From: an uncultured Gemmatimonadales bacterium
GTDB taxonomy: Bacteria; Gemmatimonadota; Gemmatimonadetes; Longimicrobiales; Gaopeijiaceae
NCBI GenBank assembly: GCA_963809895.1
Contig: CAWELD010000003.1
Span: 3,392,001-3,456,000 of the forward strand
Length of the DNA stretch: 64,000 bases
Reading direction: 5' to 3'
The notes under the pieces were generated by a model that saw only the letters and a list, made by a program, of their open reading frames with translations, ran no database searches and had not been told where the DNA came from. Position 1 is the first letter of the stretch. Every line of letters begins with the position of its first letter. Position numbers and translations under genes: made by a program. This document shows positions 1 through 31,698 of this stretch, one piece after another.

Positions 1-1834
1 CGTCCCGGAGCATCTTCCCCACCGGGATCCCGGTCCAGCCCGAGATCACCTGCCCCACCAATTCGCCGTCCACGGTCACCGGCACCAGGGGATCCTCTCC
101 CTGGAGCGCGTCCAGCTCCTCGTCCAGCGCCACCAGCTCCCGTCGCAGCGCCTCGGGGTCGGCCTTCTCCGGGGCGGATTCGGGGGATTCCGGAGCGGCG
201 TCGGAGTCTCCGGCTCCGTCGGCTCCCGCCGCGGCCTCTTCGTCGCCTGCGGGGGCCGCCTCGGCCGTGGCCTCGGGGAGATCCTCGTCTCCCAGGTCGT
301 CGGCCGCAGCGCCGGCGGTGGCCTCCAGGGTCCGGCGGAGCTCCCGGATCTTGCCCACCAGCTCGGCTTCCTTCTCCCAGCGCTCCTTGAGCTGACGTAG
401 CTCCTCTTCGATGGTGTCGTGCTCCTCTTCCAGCCGCGCCAGGCGCTCGCCGTGGTCCAGCCCGAGCGCCTCCTCCCGGCGGAGCACCCGCATCTGCACC
501 TCGACGTCCTGCAGCCGGCGGGTCGCGGACTCCACCGGTGCCGGGGTCGAGCTCTGGCCCAGGGCCAGCCGCGCGCAGGCCGTGTCCAGCACGCTCACGG
601 CCTTGTCCGGGAGCTGCCGATCCGAGAGGTAGCGGGCCGACAGGTCGACGGCGGCTTCCATGCCGTCATCCAGGATGCGTACGCCGTGGTGCTTCTCGAG
701 GCGCGGCACCACGCCTCGCATCATGACCTTGCACAGCTTCTCGGCCGGCTCCTCGACCTTGACGAGCTGGAAGCGCCGCGTCAGCGCCGGGTCCTTCTCG
801 AAGTACTTCTTGTACTCGGACCAGGTCGTGGCGGCCAGCGTGCGCAGTTCACCCCGCGCCAGCGCCGGCTTGAGGAGATTGGCCGCATCGTTCTGCCCTG
901 CGGCGCCTCCGGCCCCGATCATGGTGTGGGCCTCGTCGATGAAGAGGATGATGGGCGTGGGCGACGACTTGACCTCGTTGATGAGGCCCTTGAGCCGGTT
1001 CTCGAACTCGCCCTTGACCCCCGCACCGGCCTGCAGGAGGGCCAGGTCCAGGCTCCGCACCGACACGTTGCGGAGCACGGGGGGCACCTCGCCCGCTGCT
1101 ACGCGCATGGCGAATCCCTCCACCACCGCGGTCTTTCCGACGCCTGCCTCACCCACCAGGATCGGGTTGTTCTGGCGACGTCGGGTCAGGATGTCCACCA
1201 CCTGGCGGATCTCGAAATCCCGGCCCAGCACCGGATCCATGCGGCCCTGACGCGCGTCTTCGGTCAGGTCGGTGGTGTACTTGTCCAGGTGCGTGGTCTT
1301 GCCACCTCCCGGACGCGCCGGAGCCTCTCCCGAGGCGCCCGTGGACTGGCGGGGGCCGTCCTCTTCCGACGACGCCCCCACGATGCTCTCGAAGTCCCGT
1401 CGCAGCTCGTCGCCGGAGATCTTGGCGAACTCGGAGCTGGAGGTGGTGAGCCGCTGCTGCAGGTCGCTGTCGGACAGCAGCGCCATGAGCGTGTGCCCCG
1501 TGCGGATGCGCGAGGCGCCGTAGTCCAGCGATCCGATGAGCCACGCCTCGCGCAGCATACTCACGATCTTGGGGCTCAGGGTGGGCCGGTCACCGCTCCC
1601 CGTCTTCATGCGGTCGAGGCGACTGGTGAGATCCGACGCCAGCCGTGCGCGGTCCACGCCGAAATGCTTGAGGATGAAGGCCACGTCCGAGTCGGTGTGG
1701 TCCAGCACCTTCATGAGATAGTGGTCGATCTCGACGTCGTAGTGCGTCAGGGACATGCAGTAGCCGGCGGCGGCGTCCAACGCGGCCCGGGTCTCGTCGT
1801 CGAGCTTGCCGATGAGGGCTTTGAGATTGATCAT
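1..1834 (-). CDS. tssH: T6SS AAA+ ATPase ClpV/TssH (3' end runs off the window)
   Basis: Not in the ORF track because there is no stop in the window. Manual translation from ATG at 1834 gives MINLKALIGKLDDETRAALDAAAGYCMSLTHYDVEIDHY..., then DPVLGRDFEIRQVVDILTRRRQNNPILVGEAGVGKT (Walker A), IILFIDEAH (Walker B) and YIEKDPALTRRF-type motifs. It lies directly downstream of tssG. Confidence 0.95.
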   Translation of the reverse strand, partial: MINLKALIGKLDDETRAALDAAAGYCMSLTHYDVEIDHYLMKVLDHTDSDVAFILKHFGVDRARLASDLTSRLDRMKTGSGDRPTLSPKIVSMLREAWLIGSLDYGASRIRTGHTLMALLSDSDLQQRLTTSSSEFAKISGDELRRDFESIVGASSEEDGPRQSTGASGEAPARPGGGKTTHLDKYTTDLTEDARQGRMDPVLGRDFEIRQVVDILTRRRQNNPILVGEAGVGKTAVVEGFAMRVAAGEVPPVLRNVSVRSLDLALLQAGAGVKGEFENRLKGLINEVKSSPTPIILFIDEAHTMIGAGGAAGQNDAANLLKPALARGELRTLAATTWSEYKKYFEKDPALTRRFQLVKVEEPAEKLCKVMMRGVVPRLEKHHGVRILDDGMEAAVDLSARYLSDRQLPDKAVSVLDTACARLALGQSSTPAPVESATRRLQDVEVQMRVLRREEALGLDHGERLARLEEEHDTIEEELRQLKERWEKEAELVGKIRELRRTLEATAGAAADDLGDEDLPEATAEAAPAGDEEAAAGADGAGDSDAAPESPESAPEKADPEALRRELVALDEELDALQGEDPLVPVTVDGELVGQVISGWTGIPVGKMLRD

Positions 1835-4714: not shown

Positions 4715-5191
4715 TCATTCCGTCACGGTGAAGCGCCCGCTGTTCATCTCGAGCACCGTATCGAACTCCACGCGCTCGGGGTCCGGGTCCAGGCGCAGCG
4801 TCGCCTCGATGACGAACTTCAAGCTGCGCGTGGACTTGCTCTTGGCATCGTCGTCGGCGCGGTGGATGCGTACGTCCCTGAGGCGCGGCTCGAAGAGCTC
4901 GATCTCGCGCTCGATCATGCGCAGGAGCCGGGCCGGCGTCGTCGAGGCGTCGGCGCTCATCGACGCGAAGTCCGGCAGCCCGTAGTTGTAGATGGAGTTC
5001 TCCAGCTCCACCCGTGGAGCCGTGGCCGGCGAGCCGCTCTCGCGAGTGTTCAGGAGCCACTCCAGGTCCCGCAACAGGTTGTCCTTGAGCCGCTCCACCG
5101 AGCCGTCCCAGTCGCGGGGCTCCGGCTCCTCGCGGATGATACGGTCCAGGATCGACTGCCGGACCCTCGACGGGCGGTCACGCTGAGCCAT
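4715..5191 (-). CDS. tssE: T6SS baseplate subunit TssE (gp25-like)
   Basis: From MAQRDRP: SILDRI, RDLEWLLNTR, SIYNYGLPD, IELFEPRLRDVRI, FVIEATL. Confidence 0.92.
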   Translation of the reverse strand: MAQRDRPSRVRQSILDRIIREEPEPRDWDGSVERLKDNLLRDLEWLLNTRESGSPATAPRVELENSIYNYGLPDFASMSADASTTPARLLRMIEREIELFEPRLRDVRIHRADDDAKSKSTRSLKFVIEATLRLDPDPERVEFDTVLEMNSGRFTVTE

Positions 5192-7061
5192 CGCCTTCCT
5201 CCGTCGACTCGGCGCCGGCCTCCGCGGGCTGAGCCGGGGCCGCGGCCTTGCCCCCGGCGGCGGGCGCAGCCGTGGTGGCACTGCCCTCGAGCGAGATGGC
5301 CAGCACCGGGTCCAGACGGCAGATGTCGTCGTAGAGCTGCTGGCGCTTGCGATCGTTGGCCGGAAGGCACCTGTAGAGGAGCCCCAGGGGCCGGGCGATC
5401 ACGGCGGCCGGCTCCCACTGCTCCAGATTGCGCTTGCCGATCTGGTCGACGAGCTGCTCCAGGATGGGCCGCGCGACGCCGGTGCTGCCCATGTCCACCA
5501 GCACCGAGGCCGCCAACGACTCGGTGATGAAGCGGGCTCGGGGGCTCTCCTCGCGGTCGGCACGCTTCATGAGAAGCTCCACCCCCCGGCGCGGGTTGCC
5601 CGACGCCACCCACTCCAGGGCCTTCTCGTGGGTGGCCTCGCTGAGGACGCGGTCCCGGTCGTAGTCCGGGCTCGCGCTCGCCCCACCGTCGGCCTCGCCA
5701 TCCCCCCCCACCAGTCCCGACAGCCGCAGCCATTCCACCGTCTCGACGTTGGCGGTGGGCGTGTCGTCCATCAACGTCTTGTCGAGGATCTCCGGGAGAT
5801 CGCGCAGGAGTTGGGCGATCTCGCCCTGGATCGCCTCGGCTACCGGACGGTAGGTGGACCCGAGATTGTCCAGCGCAGTGAGCACGTAGCGCTGCAGATC
5901 GAGCCAGCCACGACCGCTGGGCGTCGCCATGACGTCTTCACAGGCGCTCAGGAGCGCCTCCCACTCTCCGTTGAGGAGGTGCATCTTGAGGCGCTTGCGC
6001 AGCTCCGTGGAGGGCGCGTCCAGCAGACGCACGTCCAGTCCGCTGCCGGTACGCAGCTCGCCCCAACGGAGCGCACGCAGGACCAGGTACGGGGCCGGAT
6101 TCGTGGGATCGGCCTTGCGCAGATAGCGGGCGGCCGAGGTGATGCGGCCCTGGGCATCGTCGGAGCTCGCCGGCTCTGCGGACAGCGAGCCTCCGCTCCG
6201 GGGCGCCGCAGCGGCTGCTGGCGCACTCGGGCCACCGGCGTCAGTCTCTGGACTCGCGCTCGCATCGTCCGCACCCGGTGTCGCGGCGGCCTCCGCTTCG
6301 GGGGGATCCGGGTCGGTCTCCAACTTCTTCTCGACGAGGACGCCCACGTAGGTCTGAGCCCGCTCCAGGCTCTCCCGGAGATGCGTGAAGCTCGGGCGAT
6401 GGCCCTTGCTGTCGGCGTAGCGCTGCCCGCACAGCTCCTGAAGCGCCGCCACCTCTTCGAGACAGCCCTTCACCTCCGCCTCGCGCTCCCGGTACCACGC
6501 CTTGGAGGTCTCGGCGAAGCCCTGCTCGAAGTTGTCGGACCGGGGCGCCCGCGGGTCGTCGTCCTCGTCCTTGCCCTTCTTGCGCGCGTCGCCTTCGCCG
6601 AAGGAGTCCTTCTTGATCCCCCTCCACGATTCGAAGTGGTGCAGGTGATGGCCCCACGAGGTGATGGAGACGAACTTCACCGGTTCGTAGCGTTCGTCCC
6701 TGGCCTTGAATCCGTCGCCCATGTAGTCGAGAACGAAGGCCCGGTCCTCGGGATGCTCCGGAAAGAGGTGATCCCAGAGCCCGTCCAGAAGCCCGTGGAC
6801 CAGTCGCAGGCCCTGGCGCAATCCCCCGAAGCCGTCCATGTGGAGTCGCGCCTCGGTGTACCACACGGCCACGGTGAGATCCTTGGACTCCCCGGTGAGG
6901 ATCTCGGTGGCGACCTCCACCACCTCGGCGAAATCGCCTTCACCGTCCCTGGCCTCTTCGCGCAGGTCGGTGAGCCGGGAGTAGATGGTCTCATAGCTGA
7001 CGTCGGTTCCCCCGGGGCGCTCCTCGTCGATGGGCGCCAGCAGCTCGTCCAGCCCGCTCAT
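5178..7061 (-). CDS. tssA: T6SS protein TssA (ImpA_N plus VasJ-like C-terminal region)
   Basis: From MSGLDELLAPIDEERPGG: ESKDLTVAVWYTEA, GLRQGLRLVHGLL..LWDHLFP, PAPYLVLRALRW, WLDLQRY, DDTPTANVETVEWL. Confidence 0.9.
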   Translation of the reverse strand: MSGLDELLAPIDEERPGGTDVSYETIYSRLTDLREEARDGEGDFAEVVEVATEILTGESKDLTVAVWYTEARLHMDGFGGLRQGLRLVHGLLDGLWDHLFPEHPEDRAFVLDYMGDGFKARDERYEPVKFVSITSWGHHLHHFESWRGIKKDSFGEGDARKKGKDEDDDPRAPRSDNFEQGFAETSKAWYREREAEVKGCLEEVAALQELCGQRYADSKGHRPSFTHLRESLERAQTYVGVLVEKKLETDPDPPEAEAAATPGADDASASPETDAGGPSAPAAAAAPRSGGSLSAEPASSDDAQGRITSAARYLRKADPTNPAPYLVLRALRWGELRTGSGLDVRLLDAPSTELRKRLKMHLLNGEWEALLSACEDVMATPSGRGWLDLQRYVLTALDNLGSTYRPVAEAIQGEIAQLLRDLPEILDKTLMDDTPTANVETVEWLRLSGLVGGDGEADGGASASPDYDRDRVLSEATHEKALEWVASGNPRRGVELLMKRADREESPRARFITESLAASVLVDMGSTGVARPILEQLVDQIGKRNLEQWEPAAVIARPLGLLYRCLPANDRKRQQLYDDICRLDPVLAISLEGSATTAAPAAGGKAAAPAQPAEAGAESTEEGDGSA

Positions 7062-7069
7062 GGCCGAGG

Positions 7070-7786
7070 TCAGGTCTCGGAGGGACCGTCGATGACGAGC
7101 TCGCGCAACTCGAGGATGGGAAACTCCTCGTCGTCGACCAGGAGCATCTTCTGGCCCACGGGAGCCTCGTCTCCGTCGGAGAGCTCCACCCACCGGGTGA
7201 CCCGCCCGAGACGGACCTCGTCGTCGGGGTCGGAGCTCGCGGACGCCGTGAGCGCCGGCACCAGGGCATCGCCGAGCTCCACGCCACCCAGGGGCTCGCC
7301 GCCCGTAATCTGCACGCGTGCCCACAGGAGGTCACGAAGTCGCTGCGGCGCCTCCATGCGAACCGATGCCAGGTGCTCCAGCGCGAACCAGCGATACTGG
7401 CCTTCGATGAATACCTCGAGGCGGGGGCCGATCCGGGGATCGGCGTCCTCGAGCCGCTCGAAAGGCTTGCCGTTGAGCGTGCCCCGCACCGGACGAGGCG
7501 CAGGATCGCCGGGCTCCGGGAACGCGCCGGATGCGAACATCTCGGCGCGTTCCCGTTCGCTCTCGATGACGTGCTTGTAGGCGATGATTCCCAGGGCCGC
7601 CTCCGGGTCCATGCGTGCGAGCACGTCCAGCTGCTTGCCCGCGCGCTCGTAGTCGCCGGCGAAGCTGAGCAGCTCGAACAGAAACGTGCGTCGCTGCACG
7701 TCGGTGGGGTCGTCCCGCACCTCGGCGTTCAGGGCCTCGATGGCCGCCGTCAGCCTGCCTTCCCGATAGAGGGCCCTGGGATCCAA
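7070..7786 (-). CDS. tagJ: T6SS accessory protein TagJ/ImpE/SciE
   Basis: GRLTAAIEAL..EVRDDPTD..RRTFLFELLSFAGDYERAGKQL, DADPRIGPRLE, RDLLW, VRLGRVTRW, GQKML. TTG start. Confidence 0.9.
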   Translation of the reverse strand: MDPRALYREGRLTAAIEALNAEVRDDPTDVQRRTFLFELLSFAGDYERAGKQLDVLARMDPEAALGIIAYKHVIESERERAEMFASGAFPEPGDPAPRPVRGTLNGKPFERLEDADPRIGPRLEVFIEGQYRWFALEHLASVRMEAPQRLRDLLWARVQITGGEPLGGVELGDALVPALTASASSDPDDEVRLGRVTRWVELSDGDEAPVGQKMLLVDDEEFPILELRELVIDGPSET

Positions 7787-7806
7787 GAGCGTCTCCCGCC
7801 CAGGAC

Positions 7807-8292
7807 CTACGCCACCCCGGTGCGGACGTCCCAGCTACCCACGTGGTCGCCACCGCGGGTGCCGTCGGGATTCTGCTCGGCGTAGGTGATCTCCACGCGG
7901 CCGAAGTCGAAGTTGACCACTTCCTGGGGGACCGGGTCACCCGAGTCGGCACCCGACCACTGGATGGCCGACACGTACAGCTCCTCGAAGTCGTACACGA
8001 GGTAGTCCAGGGCGGCGCTGCCCCCCGACTTGTACAGGGTCAGCTTGCCCGTGGGAAAATGCTCCCCGGTGCAGCACTTCATGAAGAGCTCGGCGCTGGC
8101 TGCATCGGTCTTCTTGACGACCGTGAAGGGGGACAGGCTCACCGTGCCGGTGCCGCCGCCGCCGCCGACGCCCACACTCGAGGGATTGGAGGCGCCGAAA
8201 TCGAAGGAGATGATCTCGATCTCCCCCTCGTGTCCGCTCCTCTGGGACTCGCCAGAGACTCCTTCGATGGTCAGATATGCATCCCACGCCAT
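7807..8292 (-). CDS. hcp: T6SS tube protein Hcp/TssD
   Basis: DAYLTIEGVSGESQ..HEGEIEIISF, VKKTDAASAELF, GEHF, EVVNFDFGRVEITY, WDV. RBS GAGGAGG upstream. Confidence 0.96.
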   Translation of the reverse strand: MAWDAYLTIEGVSGESQRSGHEGEIEIISFDFGASNPSSVGVGGGGGTGTVSLSPFTVVKKTDAASAELFMKCCTGEHFPTGKLTLYKSGGSAALDYLVYDFEELYVSAIQWSGADSGDPVPQEVVNFDFGRVEITYAEQNPDGTRGGDHVGSWDVRTGVA

Positions 8293-8342
8293 GGTGTCCT
8301 CCTCGGAGGGTTAGTTGGTGGCACTCACGTCAGATCCGGCGG

Positions 8343-9839
8343 CTACTCCGTCGGAACGTCCGCCACGAGGCGGAGCGAGAAGTCCACCGCGTCCAACTGG
8401 AAGTGCGGCCTCAGGTACGCCACCGCCTGGTAGGTTCCCGGGGCTCTGGGGTTCTCGATGACATCGATGCGCGCATCGGAGAGCGGCTTTTTCGCCTTGG
8501 CGTCTTCCGAGGCTCCTTCGCTCTTGAGCACGTACTCGCCGATCCAGTTCTGCAGGAACTTCTGCAGCTCGCTACGGCTCGTGTAGCGCCCGATCTGATC
8601 GCGCATCATCACCTTCAGGTAATGCGCGAAGCGCGATACCGCGAAGATGTAGGGAAGCTGCGCCGAGATGGCCGCGTTCGCCGTGGCCGCGTCGCCACCG
8701 GTGCCGACGTACTCCTTCGGCTTCTGAGCCGACTGCACGCTGAAGAACACCGCGTTGGGCGAGTTCTTCTCGTTGGCCAGCGGCGCGAAGCCGAGCTTGG
8801 CCATCTCCATCTCGTGGTCGTCGGGGATGACGACCTCGGTGGGACACTTCATGGCCACGTCACCGGCGTCCGTCTCGAAGGTGTGGACGGGCAGCCCCTC
8901 CACCTTTCCTCCGGACATGACGCCCCGGATCCTGGCGCACCATCCGTGGCGAGCGAAGGCCGAGGTCACGCGTCCGGCGAGCCCCCAGGCCGAGTTGCCC
9001 CACAGGTAACGGTCGTGCTCCTTGCCCGAGACGTCCTCCTCGAAGTCGAAGGTGTCCAGGGGATTCTGCTTGCCGTAGGGCTCGCGGAGGAGCATGCGCG
9101 GCGCCGTCAGCGCCACGTAGCGCGAGTCCTCGTTCTCCCGGAACGCCCGCCACTGGGCGTACTCCGAGCCCTCGAAGATCCCCGACAGCTCGTACATGTT
9201 GTCGAGCTCGGTGAAGCTCTCGAAGCCGAACATCTCCGCCGACGCCGACGTCAGGAACGGAGCGTGGGCCGTCGCGGCGATCTTGGACATGGCCTCCAGG
9301 AGCTTGATGTCCTGGCCGGTCTTGTCGAAGGCGAAATCGCCCACGATCGCGCCGTACGGCTGACCGCCCAGCACGTTGTACTCCTGCTGGTAGATCTTGT
9401 TGAAGAGCTGGCTCCGGTCCACGCCCATGGCCGCACGGCCCGCCGTGGTGTCGCGCAGGAGCTCCTTCTTCGTGATGGGAAAGACCTTCACCTTCAGCAT
9501 GGGGCCGGTCTCGGTGTTCGCCACCAGGTAGCGGAGCCCGGTCCAGGTCGCTTCCAGCTTCTGGAACTTCTCGTGGTGGATGATCTCGTTGAGCTGCTTC
9601 GACACGAGGCGATCGATCTCGGCGATCTGCTGGTTCAGCATCGCCTCGGTATCGGCGCTGAAGGTGACCGCGCCTTCGAGCACGTCCTTCACGAAGAGCT
9701 TGATCATCTCGCGGCCGCGGTCGGCCGCGTCGGGCTCCTTGCCCCACCTTCCTTCGTCTACGAGCTGGTCGAGGAGACTCTGCTCGGTGACCTCGGCTTC
9801 GGCAGCGGCCGGTGCCTTTTCCTGTTCAGGACTCGCCAT
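8343..9839 (-). CDS. tssC: T6SS contractile sheath large subunit TssC (VipB)
   Basis: IDRLVSKQLNEIIHHEKFQKLEATWTGLRYLV, AHAPF, WRAFRENEDSRYV, YLWGNSAW, MKCPTEVVI, QLPYIFAVSRFAHYLKVMMRD, YLRPHFQL. Confidence 0.97.
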   Translation of the reverse strand: MASPEQEKAPAAAEAEVTEQSLLDQLVDEGRWGKEPDAADRGREMIKLFVKDVLEGAVTFSADTEAMLNQQIAEIDRLVSKQLNEIIHHEKFQKLEATWTGLRYLVANTETGPMLKVKVFPITKKELLRDTTAGRAAMGVDRSQLFNKIYQQEYNVLGGQPYGAIVGDFAFDKTGQDIKLLEAMSKIAATAHAPFLTSASAEMFGFESFTELDNMYELSGIFEGSEYAQWRAFRENEDSRYVALTAPRMLLREPYGKQNPLDTFDFEEDVSGKEHDRYLWGNSAWGLAGRVTSAFARHGWCARIRGVMSGGKVEGLPVHTFETDAGDVAMKCPTEVVIPDDHEMEMAKLGFAPLANEKNSPNAVFFSVQSAQKPKEYVGTGGDAATANAAISAQLPYIFAVSRFAHYLKVMMRDQIGRYTSRSELQKFLQNWIGEYVLKSEGASEDAKAKKPLSDARIDVIENPRAPGTYQAVAYLRPHFQLDAVDFSLRLVADVPTE

Positions 9840-10338
9840 CGTCGCCTCCCTCCGTCTCGAGCTCGGCCTTCAGCCGGTCCTTCTCCTCGTCGCTGCCCAA
9901 CGCCTTCTGCAGCGCCTGATCCAGCTTGTAGTTGGTGGCGAGCTTCGACCGGAAGTCCGCGAGCTGCTTCCTCTTGTCCAGAAGCGCCTTGAGCGGCTCC
10001 ACCTGGTTCGCCACCCGGTCTGGCGAGAAGTCCTCGAAGCTCTCGAAGTTCAGATCCACGCCCAGCTTGCCACCGTCGTCGGACAGCTTGTTGTCGACGG
10101 AGAAGGTGAGGCGAGGATTCGAAGCCTTGAGGACCTTGTTGAAGTTGTCCGGATTGATCTCGGTGAATTCCCGATCTCTCACCTCCGGCAGCTCGCCGTC
10201 GCCGCTCAGGTCCGCCAGGACCCCCATGATGAACGGCAACTCCTTCTTGACGATGGCATCGCCGACCTCGACGTCGTACGAGATGTTGACCCTCGTCGGC
10301 CGCTGTCGATTGCGCCTTTTCTGGAAACTCTCCGCCAT
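9826..10338 (-). CDS. tssB: T6SS contractile sheath small subunit TssB (VipA)
   Basis: RPTRVNISYDVE, KELPFIMGVLADLSG, DNFNKVL, FESFEDFSPDRVANQVEPLKALLDKR. Confidence 0.97.
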   Translation of the reverse strand: MAESFQKRRNRQRPTRVNISYDVEVGDAIVKKELPFIMGVLADLSGDGELPEVRDREFTEINPDNFNKVLKASNPRLTFSVDNKLSDDGGKLGVDLNFESFEDFSPDRVANQVEPLKALLDKRKQLADFRSKLATNYKLDQALQKALGSDEEKDRLKAELETEGGDDGES

Positions 10339-10430
10339 GTTTCGGCTCCTGCGCGGGTGGGCCCGGGCGAGTGGGCGACTGCGCGACCTGTCCGCCTTGC
10401 GCGACGGTCCCGAGGAACAGGCCGGCCAAG

Positions 10431-10466
10431 AGTTGACAACTACATCGGCTCGCGGACGTCTGTCAA
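10431..10466. promoter_or_regulatory. Candidate promoter/operator upstream of tssB: TTGACA-N22-TGTCAA inverted pair plus palindrome AGTTGACAACT
   Basis: TTGACA at 10433-10438 (+) and at 10466-10461 (-), the latter pointing at tssB about 125 nt downstream. AGTTG-A-CAACT at 10431-10441. The -10 element is poor. Confidence 0.45.
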
Positions 10467-10527
10467 GCAGATCGACCGGTCGGCGGCCGTCGCGACCGGC
10501 CCGTGGCGAGCCGCGGCTTCGCGACGC

Positions 10528-12036
10528 TCAACCTGCACTCCACCATGCCGATAGCGGGGCTCCACCCACCTGCGTGGAGAAGAGCGTCGGCACGCGCAGC
10601 CGCGCCTCCTGCCTGTAGCCTGCCAGGGGGACGACGCCACGGTTGGCGATGCGGCGCAAGGCGTCGGCGTTCCAGACCGCTTCCACCGGGTGGGCCAGTA
10701 CCCTCCCGGCGGCGCCCACGTGGATCGGCAGGCCCGAGAGGTCGTGCGGCGCCGGTGACAAGGACCAGCCCCGCTCGAGAAAGGAGCGCGCCAGCGCCGC
10801 CGCCGCCGGGAACGCCGGGTTGCCCCACAGGTAGGCGTCGCCGGCCGCGACCTCCGCTTCCTCCACCGGAAAGGTCTCGCAGGGATCCGTGTCTTCGCCG
10901 TAGGGGAGCCGCACCAGGTATCGCGGTGCCACAAGTCCCACGGACGCCGCGGCCTCGGTCCGGCGGAAGGCGTCCCAGGCCGGCGTGTCGGGCTCGGGCC
11001 AATCGTAGTCGGCCGGAGGATCGGCCCAGCCCGCGAGTCCCAGCAAGCCGGCGCCGGCGCCGGCCAGCAGGGGGATCCCCGAGGCGTGTGCCAGCATGGC
11101 CAGGCGGTTGAGGAGAGCGACGTCTCGCGCCTCGCCACCGAACGCCTCCGCCAGCACCACCAGCGCCGGGGCACCCTCCCCAGGGCCCGGAAGCGGCTCC
11201 AGGAGCGCCCGCGCCAGGCGACTTCGCTCCAACGAGCCCGCATCGGGCCCGCCCACGTCGGCTGCGAGCTCCGCCCGCGACACGTCCAGCACGTAGCATC
11301 TGACCTCGGGCCACTCCACGCCGGCCAGCAGGAAGAGGAGCGAGCGCCAGAGCGCCTCGAGATCGCGCACCGCCGGCGCGTGCAGCACCTCGACGATCCT
11401 GCGGGCCGCCTCTCGCTCGAGGCGGGCGCGCAACTCCGACTGTGCGTCGCTCTCGTCGGGCACGCGGTGCTCCTCCACCACGTCGCGAACCCAGGCGCTC
11501 AGGTCACCCAGGGGCCCCGAGTCGGGCGGTGCCTCTACCCGGGGCGTCGCCTCCACGATGTCGTCGAGCAGGCTCTCCGAAGCGGCGGGGGCGTCGGCCG
11601 GCTCCCCGTCGTCGTCACCGCTCGGTCCGGCGCTGCCGCCGCGGCTGGCCGCGGTCTCGGCGGGCCCCGCGGCCGCTCCCTCCAGGGCAGAGGTGATGGA
11701 TGCGCGCAGGCTCTGCAACTGCGGCACGCGCTTCACCAGACGGTCCGGTCGGAAATCCGCGATCTCGCCGACGTCGAAGGTCACGGGGCCCGACCCGTCC
11801 AGCTGGAACTCCACCCGGGGCCGCAACTCGCCCAACAGCTCGTCGGGGTCGGTCACAGCCAGCACGCGGCGCTGGTCCAGGGGCGGAGCCGAGGGGCCGT
11901 CCCGGTGTCCGCGCCCGGAGAAGTCGCCCACCACCAGGATCCGGAACGGAGGCGTCTCGGCCGACTCCACGGGGCCTGTCGTACGGCCCGGGTTCGTGGA
12001 GAGGGCGATGCGAACGCGGTCGGAGTCCGGGTCCAT
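10528..12036 (-). CDS. Single-chain TssB-TssC sheath-like fusion protein lacking the TssC C-terminal domain
   Basis: N-half aligns by eye to the local TssB (RVRIA~RVNIS, PPFRILVVGDFSG~LPFIMGVLADLSG, IADFRPDRLVKRVPQLQSLR~FEDFSPDRVANQVEPLKALL). C-half aligns to the local TssC (SLLDDIVE~SLLDQLVD, EVLHAPAVRDLEALWRSL~EIIHHEKFQKLEATWTGL, WDAFRR..PRYLVRLPYG~WRAFRE..PRMLLREPYG, YLWGNPAF~YLWGNSAW). Confidence 0.88.
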   Translation of the reverse strand: MDPDSDRVRIALSTNPGRTTGPVESAETPPFRILVVGDFSGRGHRDGPSAPPLDQRRVLAVTDPDELLGELRPRVEFQLDGSGPVTFDVGEIADFRPDRLVKRVPQLQSLRASITSALEGAAAGPAETAASRGGSAGPSGDDDGEPADAPAASESLLDDIVEATPRVEAPPDSGPLGDLSAWVRDVVEEHRVPDESDAQSELRARLEREAARRIVEVLHAPAVRDLEALWRSLLFLLAGVEWPEVRCYVLDVSRAELAADVGGPDAGSLERSRLARALLEPLPGPGEGAPALVVLAEAFGGEARDVALLNRLAMLAHASGIPLLAGAGAGLLGLAGWADPPADYDWPEPDTPAWDAFRRTEAAASVGLVAPRYLVRLPYGEDTDPCETFPVEEAEVAAGDAYLWGNPAFPAAAALARSFLERGWSLSPAPHDLSGLPIHVGAAGRVLAHPVEAVWNADALRRIANRGVVPLAGYRQEARLRVPTLFSTQVGGAPLSAWWSAG

Positions 12037-12152
12037 GGCTGCTTCCGGGAGGGGAGCGTCGCGGGGCCGGACACAGGCTGGCCGAGGCCGGCGGCGGATG
12101 CTATAGGTCAGAGGTGGTCGCGCGGGCCACTCTCAGCCCATGGTAGGAGATC

Positions 12153-13556
12153 ATGAGACAGACGCAAGGCGTCCTGTGGACCAAGGGCGTGCTCCTGAAT
12201 CCCCAGCACCTGCAGCTGCAGGACCGGTACCTGGAAGACAAGCTGGCCTTCCACGTGTCGAGCCTGTCCTTCTGTCCGTGGGGATTCCTGGACTACGACA
12301 TCGACGCCGACGCGCTGTCGGGTGGCCAGTTCCGGCTCTCGCGGGCCTCCGGGCTCATGCCCGACGGGCTCGTCTTCGACATCCCCGCGGCCGACGGGCC
12401 GCCGCCGCCCCGCGACGTGGACGAGCACTGGAAGCCGGACCAGACCCGAATGGCCATCTATCTGGCCATCCCCGAGCTGGTCGACGGGGGCCGCAACGTG
12501 GGGTCGGAGGCCGGAGACACCAGCGCGCGCTTCTCACCCGAGATCCTGTCGGTGCGCGATGAGAACACCGGCCGCGCCGAGAAGGACATCCTCGTCGCCC
12601 GCAAGAACTTCCGCATTCTGTTCGAGAACGAGGCGATGGAGGGCTCCACCCTCATGCAGGTCGCGCGTCTCGTACGGACGCCTGCCGGTGAGACCACGCT
12701 GGACACGACCTACGTTCCCGAGATCCTGGACATCTCGGCCAGCGACCACCTCATGAGCATCACCCGCCGGCTCGTGGAGATCCTCACGGCCAAGGCCACC
12801 GAGTTGGGCGGCATCCGGCGCCAGCGCGGCCAGGTCGCCGACTTCGGCCGGCTCGACATCGCCCACTTCTGGCTGCTCTACACGGTCAACAGCCACCTGC
12901 CCGTCTTCCGCCACCTGCTGGCCGAGACGGGGCGGCCCCGGGCGGCCGGCGGGCCCGGTCCTCGCCGGGCGCATCCGGTGGAGCTCTTCCGCGCCATGGC
13001 GGAGATGGCCGCCACGCTCATGACCTTCGCCCCCGGACGGCACCCCAGGGACCTGCCCTCGTACGATCACGACCGGCTGTCCGAGTGCTTCACCGAGTTG
13101 GACGGCCTGCTGCGGGAGCTCCTCGAGACCGCCATCCCCACCAACTGCGTGACACTCCCGCTGGAGCGGATGGACACCTCGCTGTACGCGACCTCGCTGG
13201 ATGACGATCGCCACCTCTCGGCGGTGCAGGCCTATCTGGCCGTGACCACGGAGATGGATCAAGCACGCCTCATCAAGAAGGCCGCGGACTGGATCAAGGT
13301 GGGATCCCGGGATCAGATCCGGGACCTGCTGGGCCAGGCGGTGTCCGGCGTGGCGCTCCGCCACCAGCCCACTCCGCCCAACGAGGTGCCGCTCAAGACC
13401 GGCTGTCAGTACTTCCACCTGGAAACGTCGGGGCCCCGCTGGTCGGCGATCCTCAGGTCCCGGAGCCTGGCGGCGTGGGTGTCGTCCGAGATCCCGGATC
13501 CGCACCTGGAGCTCGTGCTGCTCCTGCCTTCCGGAAAGGACACCGGGGGCCGGTAG
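12153..13556 (+). CDS. tssK: T6SS baseplate subunit TssK (copy 1)
   Basis: VLWTKGVLLNPQHLQLQDRYLE, WGF, GLMPDGLVFD, FWLLYTVN, HPVELFR, YDHDRLSECF, YFHL. RBS TAGGAGA. Confidence 0.93.
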   Translation: MRQTQGVLWTKGVLLNPQHLQLQDRYLEDKLAFHVSSLSFCPWGFLDYDIDADALSGGQFRLSRASGLMPDGLVFDIPAADGPPPPRDVDEHWKPDQTRMAIYLAIPELVDGGRNVGSEAGDTSARFSPEILSVRDENTGRAEKDILVARKNFRILFENEAMEGSTLMQVARLVRTPAGETTLDTTYVPEILDISASDHLMSITRRLVEILTAKATELGGIRRQRGQVADFGRLDIAHFWLLYTVNSHLPVFRHLLAETGRPRAAGGPGPRRAHPVELFRAMAEMAATLMTFAPGRHPRDLPSYDHDRLSECFTELDGLLRELLETAIPTNCVTLPLERMDTSLYATSLDDDRHLSAVQAYLAVTTEMDQARLIKKAADWIKVGSRDQIRDLLGQAVSGVALRHQPTPPNEVPLKTGCQYFHLETSGPRWSAILRSRSLAAWVSSEIPDPHLELVLLLPSGKDTGGR

Positions 13557-13608: not shown

Positions 13609-14730
<1,122 letters not shown>

Positions 14731-14848
14731 GGGCCGAAAACGTATCCCGCGCGACCCGGAACAAGCAACCGCCAGCCTTGCCAACCAGGGGGCCAGCCCG
14801 GAAGTTGCCAGAGTCGGAGAGTCACGTTTCCGCTACCCCGCAGGCCCC

Positions 14849-16204
14849 GTGGGAATTCCCTCGCTTTCCCGGGTGGTCTGGAGCGAGGGCATGCACCTCG
14901 CCCAGCATCACTTCCAGGCTCAGTGCCGCTATCTCGAGAGCGCGATGCACTTCGCGCTCTCGTCGGCCTTTCACGGGATCTACGGGTTCCTCTCGCTCGA
15001 ACTGGACGACGAGGCGCTCTGGAACGGGACGGTGTCGCTGGTGCGCGCCGCCGGCGTGGCCCCTGACGGGCTGGCCTTCGACCTGAGCGATGCGGATCAC
15101 CTGCCCGAGACGCGCAAGGTCGCCGACCTGCTGGCCGCCGACCAGGACGCGGTCGTGCTCCACCTGGCCGTGCCCGCCTACCGGCGTGACCGCGCCAACT
15201 GCGCCGACGACGACGGGACCGACGGCGAGCGCCGCCGCTTCCGCGCCGAGACCGTCACCCTCTTCGACGAGACCACCGGCACCGACGCACGCCAGGTCCG
15301 CGTGGGCCGAGGCAACCTGGAGATCCTGACGGATTCCGAGCTGGACGACCACATCGTGAGCCTGCCCATGGCCAGGGTACGCGCGGAGGGGTCGGGACAC
15401 TTCGTCTACGATCCTCTCTTCGTGCCCCCGGTGCTCCGGGTCGGCGCCAGCGCGCGCATCACGGCGCTGCTCGAGGGTCTCGTGGAGATGCTGGAAGCCA
15501 AGGGAGAGGCGCTGGCGTCGCGACTGCCCGGCGCGGACTCCATGTCGGGGACCACGGCCCGGGAGCTCATCGGTCTGTGGCTCACCCACACCGTGTACAC
15601 GGGCCTGGCGCCGCTCAGGAGCCAGCTCGAGCACGGCCGCGCTCATCCCCGCGAGGTGTACGAGAACCTCGCCCGCCTCGCCGGCGCCCTGTGCACCTTC
15701 TCGCTGGAATCCGAGGCCCGGGATCTCCCGCTCTACGACCACGACCAGCCCGGCGAGGCCTTCGCCGCGCTGGACCGCCGCATCCGCAGGCACCTCGAGG
15801 TCATCGTGCCCGAGAGCCACCTGACGGTGCGGCTCACGCGAACCGAGCCCAACGTCCACACGGCCACGCTGGAGGACAAGCGGGCACTGGAACGCTCCGA
15901 ATGGGTGCTGGGCGTGCGCTCCGCCGCCTCCGCGGCCGCGGTGATCGCCGAGGTGCCGCGCACGGTGAAGGTGTGCTCGGCCGAAGACGTGATGCGGCTC
16001 GTGCAGGACGCCAACCCGGCCCTGCCGCTGGAGCACCTGGCGGCACCTCCCGGCACCATCGCTCCCCGGGTCGGCAGCCACTACTTCCGCATCCGGCACC
16101 AGGGCCGGAGCTGGGATCTGATCCGGGCCCGCTCCTCCGTGGGCGTGTACGTCCCCGACGCCTTGCCGGAGGCGGAGCTGGAGCTGTTGATCATTCCCGA
16201 ATGA
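14849..16204 (+). CDS. tssK: T6SS baseplate subunit TssK (copy 2)
   Basis: RVVWSEGMHLAQHHFQAQCRYLE, YGF, GVAPDG, FVPPVL, LWLTHTV, HPREVYENLARLAGALCTF, YDHDQP, YFRI. The GTG start at 14849 is inferred from the homology start. Confidence 0.92.
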   Translation: MGIPSLSRVVWSEGMHLAQHHFQAQCRYLESAMHFALSSAFHGIYGFLSLELDDEALWNGTVSLVRAAGVAPDGLAFDLSDADHLPETRKVADLLAADQDAVVLHLAVPAYRRDRANCADDDGTDGERRRFRAETVTLFDETTGTDARQVRVGRGNLEILTDSELDDHIVSLPMARVRAEGSGHFVYDPLFVPPVLRVGASARITALLEGLVEMLEAKGEALASRLPGADSMSGTTARELIGLWLTHTVYTGLAPLRSQLEHGRAHPREVYENLARLAGALCTFSLESEARDLPLYDHDQPGEAFAALDRRIRRHLEVIVPESHLTVRLTRTEPNVHTATLEDKRALERSEWVLGVRSAASAAAVIAEVPRTVKVCSAEDVMRLVQDANPALPLEHLAAPPGTIAPRVGSHYFRIRHQGRSWDLIRARSSVGVYVPDALPEAELELLIIPE

Positions 16205-20464: not shown

Positions 20465-20989
20465 ATGAGACGCTTGTCCCCACTCCGGATCCTGCCCTGT
20501 CTGGTCGCCGTGCTCCCGCTGGCGGCGTGCGGTGGCGGGAATGCGCCTCCGCCTCCGACGCCAGGCCGCCGGGTCGAAGCCGTGCCCGACGCCGATCGCC
20601 TCTACCGCGGTGACCGCACCGCCATGGACTCGGTCATGGTGGTCATCAACGATCCCCAGACGCTACAGCTCTGGTGGCAGCGCGCCACGGCCGAGGCCCC
20701 GGAGCCGCGCCCCGGCGTACCCACCGTGGACTTCGATCAGCACACGGTGCTCATGGTGTCGGCGGGTCGCATGAACAACGGCGACCGCATCCGCGTGGAC
20801 AGCCTGGGCTTCGAGGTGCAGGCGGAACCCGGGGGAGGGCGCAGCGAGGTGTGGTTCGCCATCGTGCGCACCACCCGCGACTGCAATCCCCTGCCCGGCG
20901 TTCGCTACCCCCTGGAGTTCGTACGCATCTCCAAGGTGCAGGAAGTGCGCTTCGATCCGCGGCTCACCGCGTGCCCGGGAGGCGCTTGA
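20465..20989 (+). CDS. Small lipoprotein, PrcB C-terminal-like domain
   Basis: MRRLSPLRILPCLVAVLPLAAC lipobox. PTVDFDQHTVLMVSAG..GDRIRVDSL resembles the PrcB_C pattern (recognised by eye). The start is inferred. Confidence 0.65.
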   Translation: MRRLSPLRILPCLVAVLPLAACGGGNAPPPPTPGRRVEAVPDADRLYRGDRTAMDSVMVVINDPQTLQLWWQRATAEAPEPRPGVPTVDFDQHTVLMVSAGRMNNGDRIRVDSLGFEVQAEPGGGRSEVWFAIVRTTRDCNPLPGVRYPLEFVRISKVQEVRFDPRLTACPGGA

Positions 20990-23006
20990 CCCTGGCAGGC
21001 CCCCCGTTCGCCACCTCGCCCCCCGGGGGCATGGCGAGGCCATCGAATTCCAGCGTGTCGAAGGGTCGGGGGATCCGGAGCGCCGGAGCCGAGGTGCCGC
21101 CGCCTCGGATCTCGGGAGCAGGCACCGACATTGCCGGAGCGCCGGGCGCCGACGTCTCCAGGGCCGGATAGCCACAGTTGCCGTCGGTGGTGGTGGCGGC
21201 GAACGTGACGTTGGTGTAGTCGGCGAAGGCGTAGATGCCGATCCACACCACTCCGTCCGCAGGTGCGGTCCACACGATCGATTCGTCGAAGCCGCTCGTC
21301 AGGCTCGACGCGTCGGAGACGGCAATGGTGGGCTTGTCGGTCATGCGGATGTAGAGGTCCGGATCGCCGGTGGCGGTGGAGCCGGCCGTCTGCGCCAGGG
21401 TGAACTGATACTCGCGGCCTGCGAAGACCCTCATCTTCAGGTAGATGAAGTTGCCGGCCGTGCGCCCCAGGCCCGTGAAGCTCCAGCATGGGGCCCACCA
21501 CGAATCCTGGTTGCCGGCGCCGGGGCCGAGCATGCCGATGTCACTCCAGGCGGCGCCGGCCCGCGCGAAGATCCTGTCGACCCCGCTGGCCCCGCCGGTG
21601 AGCGTGTAGAGCCCGTCGGCGTCGATCGATCCCAGGCCGGAGCCGACGTAGCTTCCCCAGTTGATGGGATCCCCGGGCACCTGATCGCCACTCGCATCGT
21701 AGGCCACGGCCTGCACCAGCCCTGCTCCCTGCGCGCTCAGGTCGAGCGTATTCATGGGCTGGAGCACCACGGTGGCGGGGAGCATCAGACGAGACTCGAA
21801 CCACTCGCTCCACGCGCCGGTTCCGTCCTGGATGCGAATCCGGAAATCGATGAAGGTGAGGTCACCGGGATCGCCGTAGCACAGGGTGCTCTGCTCCACC
21901 AGCGTGCCGGAGCCGCCGTCGGATGCCGGCGTGAAGGCCCAGGAACGGCCATCCAGGGCGACCCAGTCCGCCTGATCCTCGAAGCGGAACTCCGACTGGA
22001 CGCCTGTCGGCTCGGTGAGGGGACCGCTCGTGGAGACGTTGCCGTCGGCGTCCGAATAGTCGGCCTCTCCGGCGACCCTGAAGCCCAGCGCACCGGGCCC
22101 ACATCCGGTGATGAACGGCCGGAACTCGGTGTCGAAGCGCGTGATCATGGGGGGATTCACCACGTCCACCGTGGCCATCCCCTGCACGCCCTCGGTCTCG
22201 GCGGTGATGATGGCGCGTCCCTCGGCCTTGGCCTCCACCAGCCCCGTCGCCGACACGGTGGCCACGCTTTCGTCGTCGCTGGACCAGGTGACGGTCTTGC
22301 CGGTGAGCTCGTTGCCGCCGGTGTCACGGACCGTGGCCTGGAGCTGGACGGTCTGGCCCACCAGCAGCTGGTTGCTGGCCGGGGCGACCTCCACGGAGCC
22401 GACCCCGGCGTTCACCTGCACGGTGGCAGGCGCTGACGCCAGCCCCAGCGTGCCGAAGGGACTGCGCGCGCTGGCCCGGACGTAGTGCACGCCGGGCTCG
22501 TTGATGGTGAGCGTGGCGCCGGTCGTGGACACCTCGGCGGACTGCGGGCTCCCGAAGCCCGAATCGTCGTCCCACTCGACGCGGTACCCGTTCGCGTTGG
22601 AGACCGGGTCGATCTGGATGCTGAACGAGGCGCCCTGGGTGACCTGGTTCGGCGCGTTCACGAAGTCGGGCACGAAACTGGCGAGATTGAGGACCGCCGT
22701 AGAGGTCTGGCCCGCCACCACGCCCACCGTCGTGCGTGCGAACTCCACCAGGGCGCCGGATGCCCGGGCCTCCAGCGAAACCGTGTAGCTCCCCGGTTGC
22801 AGGTTCTTGACCTCTACCGTCTCACCGGGTGACAACGAGCGCGTGCTCGGCGTGGGCCCCTCGACGTGGAGTGTACCCCCGTCCACCACCTGAGCGGTGG
22901 TCTGCGTGATCTGGAGCGAGAGGACCGCGGCCACCTTCGGGTCCGTGCTGGACTCACAGGCCGCCAACGCCAGGAGCGCGCACAGCGCCGCCGCGCGCGC
23001 CCTCAC
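20964..23006 (-). CDS. Surface lipoprotein with Ig-like (Big_2/FN3-like) domains and a C-terminal PPC-like domain
   Basis: Lipobox LALAAC. Big_2 repeat VEVAP..LLVGQTVQLQATVRD..VTWSSDDESVATVSATGLV. PPC-like TGDPDLYIR...DESI..PADGVVWIGIYAF. Confidence 0.8.
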   Translation of the reverse strand: MRARAAALCALLALAACESSTDPKVAAVLSLQITQTTAQVVDGGTLHVEGPTPSTRSLSPGETVEVKNLQPGSYTVSLEARASGALVEFARTTVGVVAGQTSTAVLNLASFVPDFVNAPNQVTQGASFSIQIDPVSNANGYRVEWDDDSGFGSPQSAEVSTTGATLTINEPGVHYVRASARSPFGTLGLASAPATVQVNAGVGSVEVAPASNQLLVGQTVQLQATVRDTGGNELTGKTVTWSSDDESVATVSATGLVEAKAEGRAIITAETEGVQGMATVDVVNPPMITRFDTEFRPFITGCGPGALGFRVAGEADYSDADGNVSTSGPLTEPTGVQSEFRFEDQADWVALDGRSWAFTPASDGGSGTLVEQSTLCYGDPGDLTFIDFRIRIQDGTGAWSEWFESRLMLPATVVLQPMNTLDLSAQGAGLVQAVAYDASGDQVPGDPINWGSYVGSGLGSIDADGLYTLTGGASGVDRIFARAGAAWSDIGMLGPGAGNQDSWWAPCWSFTGLGRTAGNFIYLKMRVFAGREYQFTLAQTAGSTATGDPDLYIRMTDKPTIAVSDASSLTSGFDESIVWTAPADGVVWIGIYAFADYTNVTFAATTTDGNCGYPALETSAPGAPAMSVPAPEIRGGGTSAPALRIPRPFDTLEFDGLAMPPGGEVANGGPARVKRLPGTR

Positions 23007-24360
23007 TGCTGGCCTCCGGGAAACGTCACCCTGATGATGCCGGTGGTGGGCGGTGGTGGCTCCTCACCCCCACCGCCACCACCGCCGCCGAGGACCGCGG
23101 CGGCCACGCCCACCACGGCGGCGCCGGCGCCGATCCACTTCCATGGCGGCCCGCCACCTCCGCTCGGGGCGCCGGCAGCCTCCGGAGTCGTCTGCGCCAC
23201 CTGCTCCGCCAACGCCCGCTCCAGAAGCCGGGCCGCCAGGCTCATGGGGGCGACCTGGTCGGGTCCAACCACCACCCCGAGGAGGGCGCCGCTGCGGTCC
23301 ACGAGCGGCGCGCCCTGAGCGTCCTGGGGCAGCGCCGAGGCCAACGTCACCAGGCCCTGCGGGCTGGACGGCCAGTCACCGAGCCGCGCGCGGCCGCTGG
23401 CCGCCGGCTGGCAGCCCGGATGGAAGACGGACCACACGTACGCGCCGCTCGACGGCCGCGCTCCGCTGGAGAGCGTCGGTTGCCCCGAAGCGCCCAAACG
23501 CAGCACGGCGAGGTCCAGATCCTGATCGCTGGCCGCCACCGAGATGTCGCTGTAGACCCCGCCCGGCGTCGTGACCGTGAGTCCCGAGCTCTGGGGAAGG
23601 CCGCTCCTGGAGGTCAGGACCACGCCGTCCGAGCGTGCCAGGAAGCCGGTGGTGCAGAACTGCTGACCACCCTGGTCGTAGCGGATGCTCACCAGCGTCG
23701 AGGCCACCCGGCTCTCCACGTCGGCGGCGAGCAGGGGCGCCAGGGCGAAGCCCACCTCCGTGGTGACACCAGGCAGGATCTCGCGGGTGATCTGCGCCGG
23801 CTCGTAGCCGTCGGCGGAGGCGGACAGACGGTACGTGCCCGGCGGGAGCGTGAGCTCGCCCCCGGCCGATACCGCGCCCTGGCCCTCGACGTTCACGGTC
23901 ACCGGCACTCCGGCGCCGCTCACGGCCAGCGTGCCCTGGGCGTCGGCGTCGAAGGTGCCGGGCCAGCGCCAGTCGGTGGTGGTCACGTCCTCGTCGCCGG
24001 CCCCCTCACCCTGCACCGCCGCCAGCGCCCGGTCGTATGCGTCCACCACGCGGGGCGGGAGCGTGCGGTCCACGGGCCACTGGCGGCCCTCGCGGGCGGA
24101 CCAGCGGAGCCACACGCCGGCCAGGTCCTGGTCGCCGAGGCCCAGGAGGGTGAGCGCCATCTCGTGCACGCTCACCGCCCACAGACTGTCCCGAGGCGCG
24201 GCGTCGGGGTCGGCGGCGCGCATGAGGAGATCCAGAGCGGCCGAATCACTCAACTGGCTGCGGGCCTGCTCCACGAGCCGGGCCCGATCCTGGGCTACGG
24301 CCGGACGAGCGCCGAAGGCCACGACCGCGAGCGTCACCATCGAGACCGTCGCGAGCTTCT

Positions 24361-24364
<4 letters not shown>
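23003..24364 (-). CDS. Exported protein: PEGA-like domain, degenerate trypsin-like domain, C-terminal TM/Gly-rich tail
   Basis: Signal peptide (AVA|Q), LPPGTYRLSASADGY. Trypsin-like TGFLARSDGVVLTS, DQDLDLAVL, DAQGAPLVDRSGALLGVV, with no catalytic His or Ser. WKWIGAGAAVVGVAAAVL TM. Confidence 0.75.
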
Positions 24365-27411
<3,047 letters not shown>

Positions 27412-27465
27412 GCTCGCGGGGAGGGCCAGGAGCCGCGATCACTTGGCTTCTTCACCGGGACGCTG

Positions 27466-27495
27466 AGAATAGGCCGGGGTCATCGGCGAGGTCAA
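27466..27495 (-). promoter_or_regulatory. Sigma70-type promoter for the minus-strand kinase operon
   Basis: TTGACC (27495-27490), 18-nt spacer, TATTCT (27471-27466), about 55 nt upstream of the 27411 start. Confidence 0.6.
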
Positions 27496-27639
27496 GGATT
27501 CGAGCGCGCCGTGGGCCACGGCCGGGAAGCACCGCCAGACTTGCCGATCCGACCCACCGGCGCCACCGTGGACATGACAGGTCGCTGACCTGGCGAGCGC
27601 TGCCCTTCCGAGCTCTCCACCCGCGAGGACCAGGCCTTC

Positions 27640-29430: not shown

Positions 29431-29453
29431 GCTGCGCCGCGGACTGATCCGCC

Positions 29454-30863: not shown

Positions 30864-30897
30864 CAGAGGCCGGGCCTCGTCGGCAGCGACGGGTGCG

Positions 30898-31629: not shown

Positions 31630-31698
31630 AAGATTCTCCAGAAGCCGGATACCCAAGCCAGGACATGCGCGGCCATGTCCCTCTCTGGATGGTTAGTC

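Follow-up and report, generated by a model that had tools for sequence, protein, structure and literature searches.

Why should a T6SS gene cluster that encodes an intact TssB and an intact TssC also carry a third sheath gene, the product of which joins TssB-like and TssC-like parts in one chain and ends before the domain through which sheath subunits polymerise? The question is posed by a 64,000-nucleotide stretch of DNA (the window) from an uncultured Gemmatimonadales bacterium (GenBank assembly GCA_963809895.1, contig CAWELD010000003.1), in which an earlier note, made from the sequence alone, had described a natural TssB-TssC fusion that keeps the ClpV-tag helix and lacks the polymerisation domain. 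Pfam matches and profile alignment confirm that description, and our analyses show that the fusion is a real, conserved, accessory sheath paralog, unable to polymerise by the known mechanism.

Table 1. Features of the T6SS cluster in the window, numbered from its first nucleotide.
Feature	Position	Strand	Basis or remark
clpV, 5' part (932 aa in genome); aliphatic-groove-type N-terminus	2..1834	-	Class by comparison with PMC4239648
tssE (gp25-like)	4715..5281	-	Domain match
Long tssA (ImpA_N + VasJ); true start probably inside ORF	5178..7325	-	Pfam
tagJ (ImpE)	7070..7786	-	Domain match
hcp	7807..8292	-	Pfam
Canonical tssC, VipB + VipB_2, N-terminal LLDQLV helix	8343..9839	-	Pfam/NCBIfam
Canonical tssB	9826..10338	-	Pfam/NCBIfam
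Compact TssCL-like gene (single-chain TssB-TssC paralog without VipB_2 handshake domain)	10528..12036	-	502 aa
Family C-terminal motif, consensus RFQS-x-A-x-P-xxx-LAG-x-W; chain end at domain boundary	10540..10590	-	Family alignment
TssC/VipB N-terminal domain, residues 204-472	10621..11427	-	Pfam PF05943 and structure match
ClpV-tag-like helix, residues 155-162, within variable linker	11551..11574	-	Profile alignment; motif from PMC4239648
TssB/VipA-like part, residues 6-110	11707..12021	-	Pfam PF05591
Putative donor strand, residues 7-13, equivalent of TssB beta1	11998..12018	-	Sequence; low pLDDT in monomer model
tssK (first of two), divergent from fusion gene	12153..13556	+	Pfam/NCBIfam

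The fusion gene lies upstream of intact tssB and tssC on the same strand (Table 1), and the minus-strand genes comprise the fusion, tssB, tssC, hcp, tagJ, long tssA, tssE, tssF, tssG, clpV, vgrG and PAAR-type genes, the last three kinds being named by eye from their motifs. The divergent arm holds tssK, which begins 117 bp upstream of the fusion gene, a proline-rich ORF, a second tssK, tssL and tssM. The long tssA is the sole ImpA_N match in the genome, in which TssJ (PF12790) found no match. The order tssK / fusion-tssB-tssC is kept in four metagenome loci, three of which extend into hcp-tagJ-tssA; identity to the window proteins in these four loci is 39-44% for the fusion and 77-84% for TssC. 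A promoter and terminator scan of positions 9700-12400 returned nothing exceeding shuffled sequence, and no RNA run was among the listed public sequencing runs that match the gene. The two tssK paralogs (12153-13556 and 14711-16204) are about 30% identical, and the pair is conserved in related loci. Between them, the proline-rich ORF (13609-14784, minus strand) has no Pfam match; together with its relatives (L179, L182, L032, L034, L036), which share a conserved N-terminal region of about 110 aa, it bears two to four copies of a (Y/F)-T-R-(I/M)-F-G/R-like motif, possibly threonine phosphosites for a kinase/FHA pair. After tssM, genes of Ig-like (Big_2), trypsin-like, FHA, TPR and Ser/Thr kinase type (Pfam) cluster at 20964-35674.

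The fusion matched T6SS_VipA at residues 6-110 (36.7 bits, cut-off 24) and VipB at residues 204-472 (117.7 bits), as the earlier note had predicted for an HMM scan, and VipB_2 was absent from its Pfam scan, while the adjoining TssC scores both VipB and VipB_2. Over the aligned parts it is 29% identical to the neighbouring TssB and likewise to the neighbouring TssC, and it falls below the cut-offs of the canonical TssC model (TIGR03355; 122.4 bits, cut-off 271.5) and the canonical TssB model (TIGR03358; 36.2 bits, cut-off 97.25). Along the chain the TssB-like part is followed by the TssC-like tag helix and then by TssC domains 3 and 2. In a profile-profile alignment SESLLDDIVE of the fusion pairs with EQSLLDQLVD of TssC, which places the helix at 11551-11574, opposite SLLDQLVD, where the earlier note had put it. 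The alignment extends only to TssC residue 376, so that 122 residues of TssC are missing from the fusion; the C-terminal loss thus stands, with the estimate of roughly 125 aa corrected to 122. The lost domain includes the C-terminal donor strand of TssC itself, hence one of the two donor arms is gone too.

Structure prediction agrees with this architecture. An AF2 monomer model (pLDDT 87, pTM 0.83) finds its best structural matches in TssC/VipB chains; residues 194-502 overlay TssC1 64-400 (5N8N; Z 31.5, rmsd 2.7, 304 aligned) and the model overlays residues 6-292 of the 382 in the R2 pyocin sheath (Z 17.8). The whole chain matches single-chain sheath proteins up to their C-terminal domain and stops short of it, which makes the fusion a sheath protomer without domain 1. 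It is predicted to fold as a one-chain TssB/TssC heterodimer, the two halves of which satisfy each other in the model, and its own tail seems to lie where TssC has its segment near residue 400. Sequence and structure alignment together show that the fusion lacks the inner domain, which takes up linker strands and contacts the Hcp tube. By comparison with canonical TssB/TssC (VipA/VipB; 5N8N, 3J9G, 5URW), it retains the predicted fold of domains 2 and 3, the tag helix and the N-terminal strand, but differs in being one chain, of 26-29% identity, with no domain 1 and no C-terminal donor strand, and in forming a separate clade.

The fusion gene is neither a pseudogene nor an assembly error. The earlier note had allowed that the C-terminal domain might lie in another frame, but when the TssC C-terminus was searched by permissive tblastn against 9901-12200, only pieces at chance level turned up, whatever the frame (best E 0.012), no second tssC was found anywhere in the genome, and the missing domain is not encoded elsewhere. 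Two public runs yield contigs that span both the stop codon and the interval before tssB, with no indel in either; one contig has a 1-base deletion at 10801 and another has three near 11410, and both are tentatively read as short foreign pieces. GC3 of the gene (0.88) is similar to that of its neighbours. Contigs carry 14 synonymous and 7 non-synonymous variants within it, a pN/pS of 0.19 (n=21), to which low-depth contigs may contribute errors. In ten close homologue pairs dN/dS is 0.10-0.36, indicating purifying selection, and in distant pairs, with dS near saturation, it is 0.38-0.50; full-length relatives reach 40-85% identity. Homologues are therefore not sporadic and decaying, as the earlier note had also feared, and conservation extends to the chain end: this lies within six residues of the family C-terminus in 79 of the best 80 loci, the remaining one (L067) diverging at its end.

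Those loci come from a genome scan with a 27-row sub-alignment. Among 100 homologue matches, 88 have VipA and VipB without VipB_2, eight have VipB alone and four are canonical TssC. Our family alignment contains the query and 86 of the 100 homologues; a new Pfam scan found VipB_2 in 0/87 of its rows, which is partly circular because the rows were picked by that architecture, and the full alignment is too diverged for pattern searching. A phmmer search (E up to 1e-30) gave 689 representatives at 50% identity, a number that may count some canonical TssC as well. In metagenomes, a scan with the window protein alone found no relative, and one with the alignment as query found 72 loci. The best 80 loci belong to Acidobacteriota, Gamma- and Betaproteobacteria, Planctomycetota, Desulfobacterota, Gemmatimonadota, Verrucomicrobia/Kiritimatiellae, Myxococcota, Binatia and Eisenbacteria; roseobacter plasmids add Alphaproteobacteria, giving a range of about nine phyla. 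In a quick tree of the shared domain (a sequence subset of 36 fusions and 45 TssC, second-TssC or full-fusion rows, with long branches and no external root), a long branch (SH-aLRT 100, length 1.34) separates all 36 fusions from the other rows, and the nearest named rows to the window fusion are from Gemmatimonadota. Fusions show about 2.3 times the patristic distances of their cognate TssCs. A second kind of natural fusion was encountered, complete TssB-TssC chains of 539-639 aa that retain VipB_2 (L164:4305-5924, L165:5939-7858, L166:5965-7602); these have no T6SS core gene in the fetched stretch and group inside canonical TssC, apart from the handshake-less family.

The family accompanies the canonical sheath as an optional companion. 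A canonical TssC with VipB_2 occurs in 47 of 50 fusion genomes examined (50 of 79, mostly those without tssC in the fetched DNA), and the other three, all small assemblies, carry vgrG or clpV close to the fusion. In a set made up of the window's own genome and 40 relatives, tssC occurs in 14; eight of these have an intact fusion, one a remnant and five none that we found, and only one of the 27 relatives without tssC has a fusion, in a 460-contig assembly. A single-contig, 97% complete relative (G015) has the same T6SS and no fusion that we could find, which makes the fusion accessory. The position of the gene varies (beside tssB, tssK, vgrG, clpV or tssM, or unlinked), in 36 of the best 80 loci, some of which are short contigs, the fetched DNA shows no T6SS gene besides the fusion, and no conserved non-T6SS partner gene was found within 6 kb of 87 fusion genes. 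In Pyrinomonadaceae-type genomes (L069, L090, L098, L101, L105, L111) the fusion lies away from the T6SS, among genes that by eye resemble mnmE, mnmG and parA/parB. A link between the fusion and TssA type was rejected, as long and short TssA both occur.

One relative has been described. TssCL was named in roseobacters as a protein with two VipA domains and one VipB domain and of unknown function (Suria et al. 2022, PMC9515649), and the available part of that paper reports it as not detected outside Alphaproteobacteria and contains no mention of a missing handshake domain or a tag helix. Like the window fusion, TssCL has a short divergent VipA followed by VipB, at about 26-31% identity to the cognate TssB/TssC, and is present besides canonical tssB and tssC. 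Aligned to the family profile, TssCL of Leisingera methylohalidivorans matches across 470 columns (probability 100, E 1e-69), the core aligning end to end, and VipB_2 has no match in its annotated 1370-aa part. Its ORF is 1,654 aa long, with an N-terminal TssB copy 81% identical to the TssB of its cluster and, between that copy and the core, a 907-aa acidic linker with 12 LDxLLxxL-like repeats. The plasmid gene table begins this gene (L176:16803-21767) 284 codons late, whereby the TssB copy is dropped from the annotation. TssCL thus differs in size (about 1,650-1,680 aa) and in its near-identical TssB copy and acidic linker; the window protein, with one VipA match and no second TssB-like one (Pfam), is the 500-aa core alone. 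On sequence evidence the core sits at the C-terminus of TssCL, and the window protein would work like that core. Across the open literature searched, TssCL was the only described relative, and no account turned up of the compact form or its range, of the absence of the handshake domain, or of a function; no other T6SS paper was among the matches listed for the term TssCL, which is also absent from the available part of a 2026 review of T6SS accessory factors. Members bear the NCBI label 'type VI secretion system contractile sheath domain-containing protein', an automatic architecture label with no function attached.

The tag helix is a conservation island, scoring 0.99 at residues 156-161 against 0.40 and 0.50 in the flanks (16-row local subfamily). 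The window fusion has an LLDEII-like helix, LLDDIV, and the window ClpV an N-terminus of aliphatic type. Classes of TssC helix and ClpV N-terminus split together (PMC4239648), and in 63 fusion-TssC pairs the helix class of the fusion follows that of its cognate TssC. Of the fusions in the 45 genomes with an LLDxI-type TssC, 34 fit LLDxI and 11 match neither pattern, while none fits xxRLLG alone; where TssC is of EFASLL type (16), 15 fusions fit xxRLLG, five of them also the loose LLDxI pattern, and the sole exception comes from a genome with two T6SSs. A third type of TssC is present in two pairs. The fusion helix also tracks the class of the ClpV N-terminus in 8/8 further loci. This class match needs only one or two changes on the trees, and is therefore suggestive rather than statistically independent; a Fisher test on the motif classes (p 4e-10) was set aside, since related sequences are not independent samples. 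Distances among the fusions are correlated with those among the TssCs (Mantel 0.44, 0/2000 permutations), which shared ancestry alone could give. From motif and class matching we infer that the helix may be recognised and pulled by the cognate ClpV. At 7070-9839 the window combines tagJ with an LLDxI-type TssC, as do many Acidobacteriota-type clusters (L117-L139), a pairing described in PMC4239648 as nearly exclusive, Solibacter being the exception. Six variants (P0084, P0085, P0088, P0091, P0095, P0100) have no internal linker or tag helix and end in at least one acidic amphipathic helix like the EFASLL-type TssC helix.

The direction of the handshake bears on where such a protein might sit. 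In solved sheaths domain 1 receives beta1 of TssB and the C-terminal strand of TssC (PMC5807055), and both linkers run to the ring nearer the baseplate (PMC5813253, PMC8195476), so that a fusion subunit would fit only at the growing, distal end. Linker length matters: three extra residues in the VipA linker block contraction (PMC5797969, PMC5813253), and with the Vibrio cholerae linker three residues longer binding is within the same ring and not to the ring below (PMC5813253). The window fusion has a donor-like N-terminal strand by sequence, which it may donate, as the earlier note suggested; the other half of that suggestion, that it could not accept further subunits, is supported by the domain loss. 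Before beta2, 41 of 60 fusions have a strict alternating hydrophobic pattern (19.5% in shuffles), and the other 19 lack it. The spacer is 17-28 residues long (mode 19), against 16 in 59/59 TssBs, and conservation of the arm is 0.56 against 0.87 for beta2. Of 81 near-invariant TssC positions, the family keeps 36 and loses 45, the lost ones forming surface-looking clusters that are partly explained by the greater divergence of the family. The contraction residue D333 of VipB, which maps to D340 of TssC, is D in 41/41 TssCs, and in fusions is D in 14/87 and E in 47/87. A complex prediction of fusion residues 1-31 with TssC 372-498, both entered as alignments, scored 0.02 against a mark of 0.32, controls not being folded, and counts neither for nor against strand donation.

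We tentatively favour the reading that the fusion is a terminal, donor-only protomer that stalls sheath growth and is removable by ClpV. As an accessory protomer that has the TssB-like strand and lacks the acceptor domain, it would sit at the distal end, insert that strand into the last canonical TssC and present nothing to the next ring, so that polymerisation would stall or end; the cognate ClpV would then pull off or recycle it through the TssC-type helix. The fusion would tune the T6SS and not be essential to it, and a role in capping the sheath or measuring its length is suggested by geometry. The fixed architecture and chain end, the fold of the model, the direction of the linkers, the beta1-like strand and the co-occurrence with canonical TssC all speak for this reading. 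Against it stand the poorly conserved arm with its longer spacer, the fusions without the strict strand pattern, the lost TssC positions and unfixed D333 equivalent, anchoring through one arm only, the fusion-less T6SS of G015 and the loci where the fusion is the only T6SS gene seen in the fetched DNA. The eCIS caps Alg16A/B, Pvc16 and Afp16 end the sheath by a mimicked, strand-donating handshake, according to the available text of PMC8894135, but the analogy is one of working only: their fold is unrelated and they also plug the tube, whereas the fusion has no tube-binding domain. TagA/TsmA may have an analogous role in stopping sheath growth, but is an ImpA_N protein at the membrane, without homology to the fusion (available parts of PMC6745524 and PMC13584744). 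Exactly one ImpA_N match was found in 25 of 26 T6SS or fusion genomes and a second, TagA-like one in none, which speaks for a terminator; this lack is common to genomes without the fusion too, which counts against one. In TssCL, a core joined to an 81%-identical TssB copy would be tethered to the sheath. The wider proposal, that the family is a ClpV-removable terminator built from the sheath fold in about nine phyla without a separate TagA, TssCL being a tethered ruler whose acidic linker of about 900 residues sets sheath length, is possible but rather doubtful.

The main rival holds that the fusion is directed at ClpV, as a soluble sheath-shaped protein that buffers, recruits or positions the enzyme or seeds disassembly, and is no structural end piece. 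We think this unlikely, if still to be reckoned with: the conservation island, the class match with TssC and ClpV, the similar C-terminal helices of variants without the internal one, the 12 repeats in the TssCL linker and the many lost lattice motifs all point its way, but the class match carries the phylogenetic limit given above, and a peptide would suffice as a decoy, yet the whole 500-aa fold is under purifying selection. The donor-only protomer and this regulator are not mutually exclusive. Improbable is a baseplate-end subunit in which TssE replaces the lost domain (a special first ring), or a TssA/baseplate assembly factor. The eCIS baseplates employ dedicated sheath paralogs (PDB titles), and the fusion gene often adjoins vgrG, tssK or clpV. 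TssE is structurally homologous to sheath domain 1 (PMC5813253), but below TssE the donor arm that the fusion keeps would find no acceptor, the tail of the fusion seems to take the place of the TssC segment near residue 400, and most T6SSs function without the fusion. A TagJ decoy, as the earlier note had proposed, is very unlikely, as is an inhibitor or chaperone sequestering free TssB or TssC; tagJ is present in the window and many cognate clusters, but HsiE1 binds residues 8-30 of HsiB1 (PMC4239648), a segment that the fusions mostly lack, R-x-R-x-P before the strand being kept in 61/63 cognate TssBs and 0/64 fusions, the window one included, no tagJ was seen in the fetched stretch of Blastocatellia and other cognate clusters, and the halves of the fusion satisfy each other. 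A decaying duplicate or assembly artefact, for which one could cite the long branches (1.45-2.5) of the window protein and its family-level relatives, the 65-codon remnant in G029 and the five T6SS-bearing relatives with none, is largely refuted and most improbable, given the pN/pS and dN/dS values, the 40-85% identical full-length relatives, the gene order of the four metagenome loci and the independent contigs across the stop codon.

Members of the family are often annotated as a second TssC, and T6SS counts and typing can be confused as a result. TssCL is recast from a recent roseobacter oddity to one form of an old and widespread accessory, the cultured, harmless carriers of which include Leisingera, Rubrivivax, Methylobacter, Massilia and Pseudoduganella. 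In V. cholerae, density at the sheath's distal end was left unassigned, according to the available text of PMC5813253. For the make-up of that end, and for the way in which sheath growth stops without TagA, the family offers a candidate part: the fusion may stop sheath growth, or link the sheath to the recycling enzyme ClpV.
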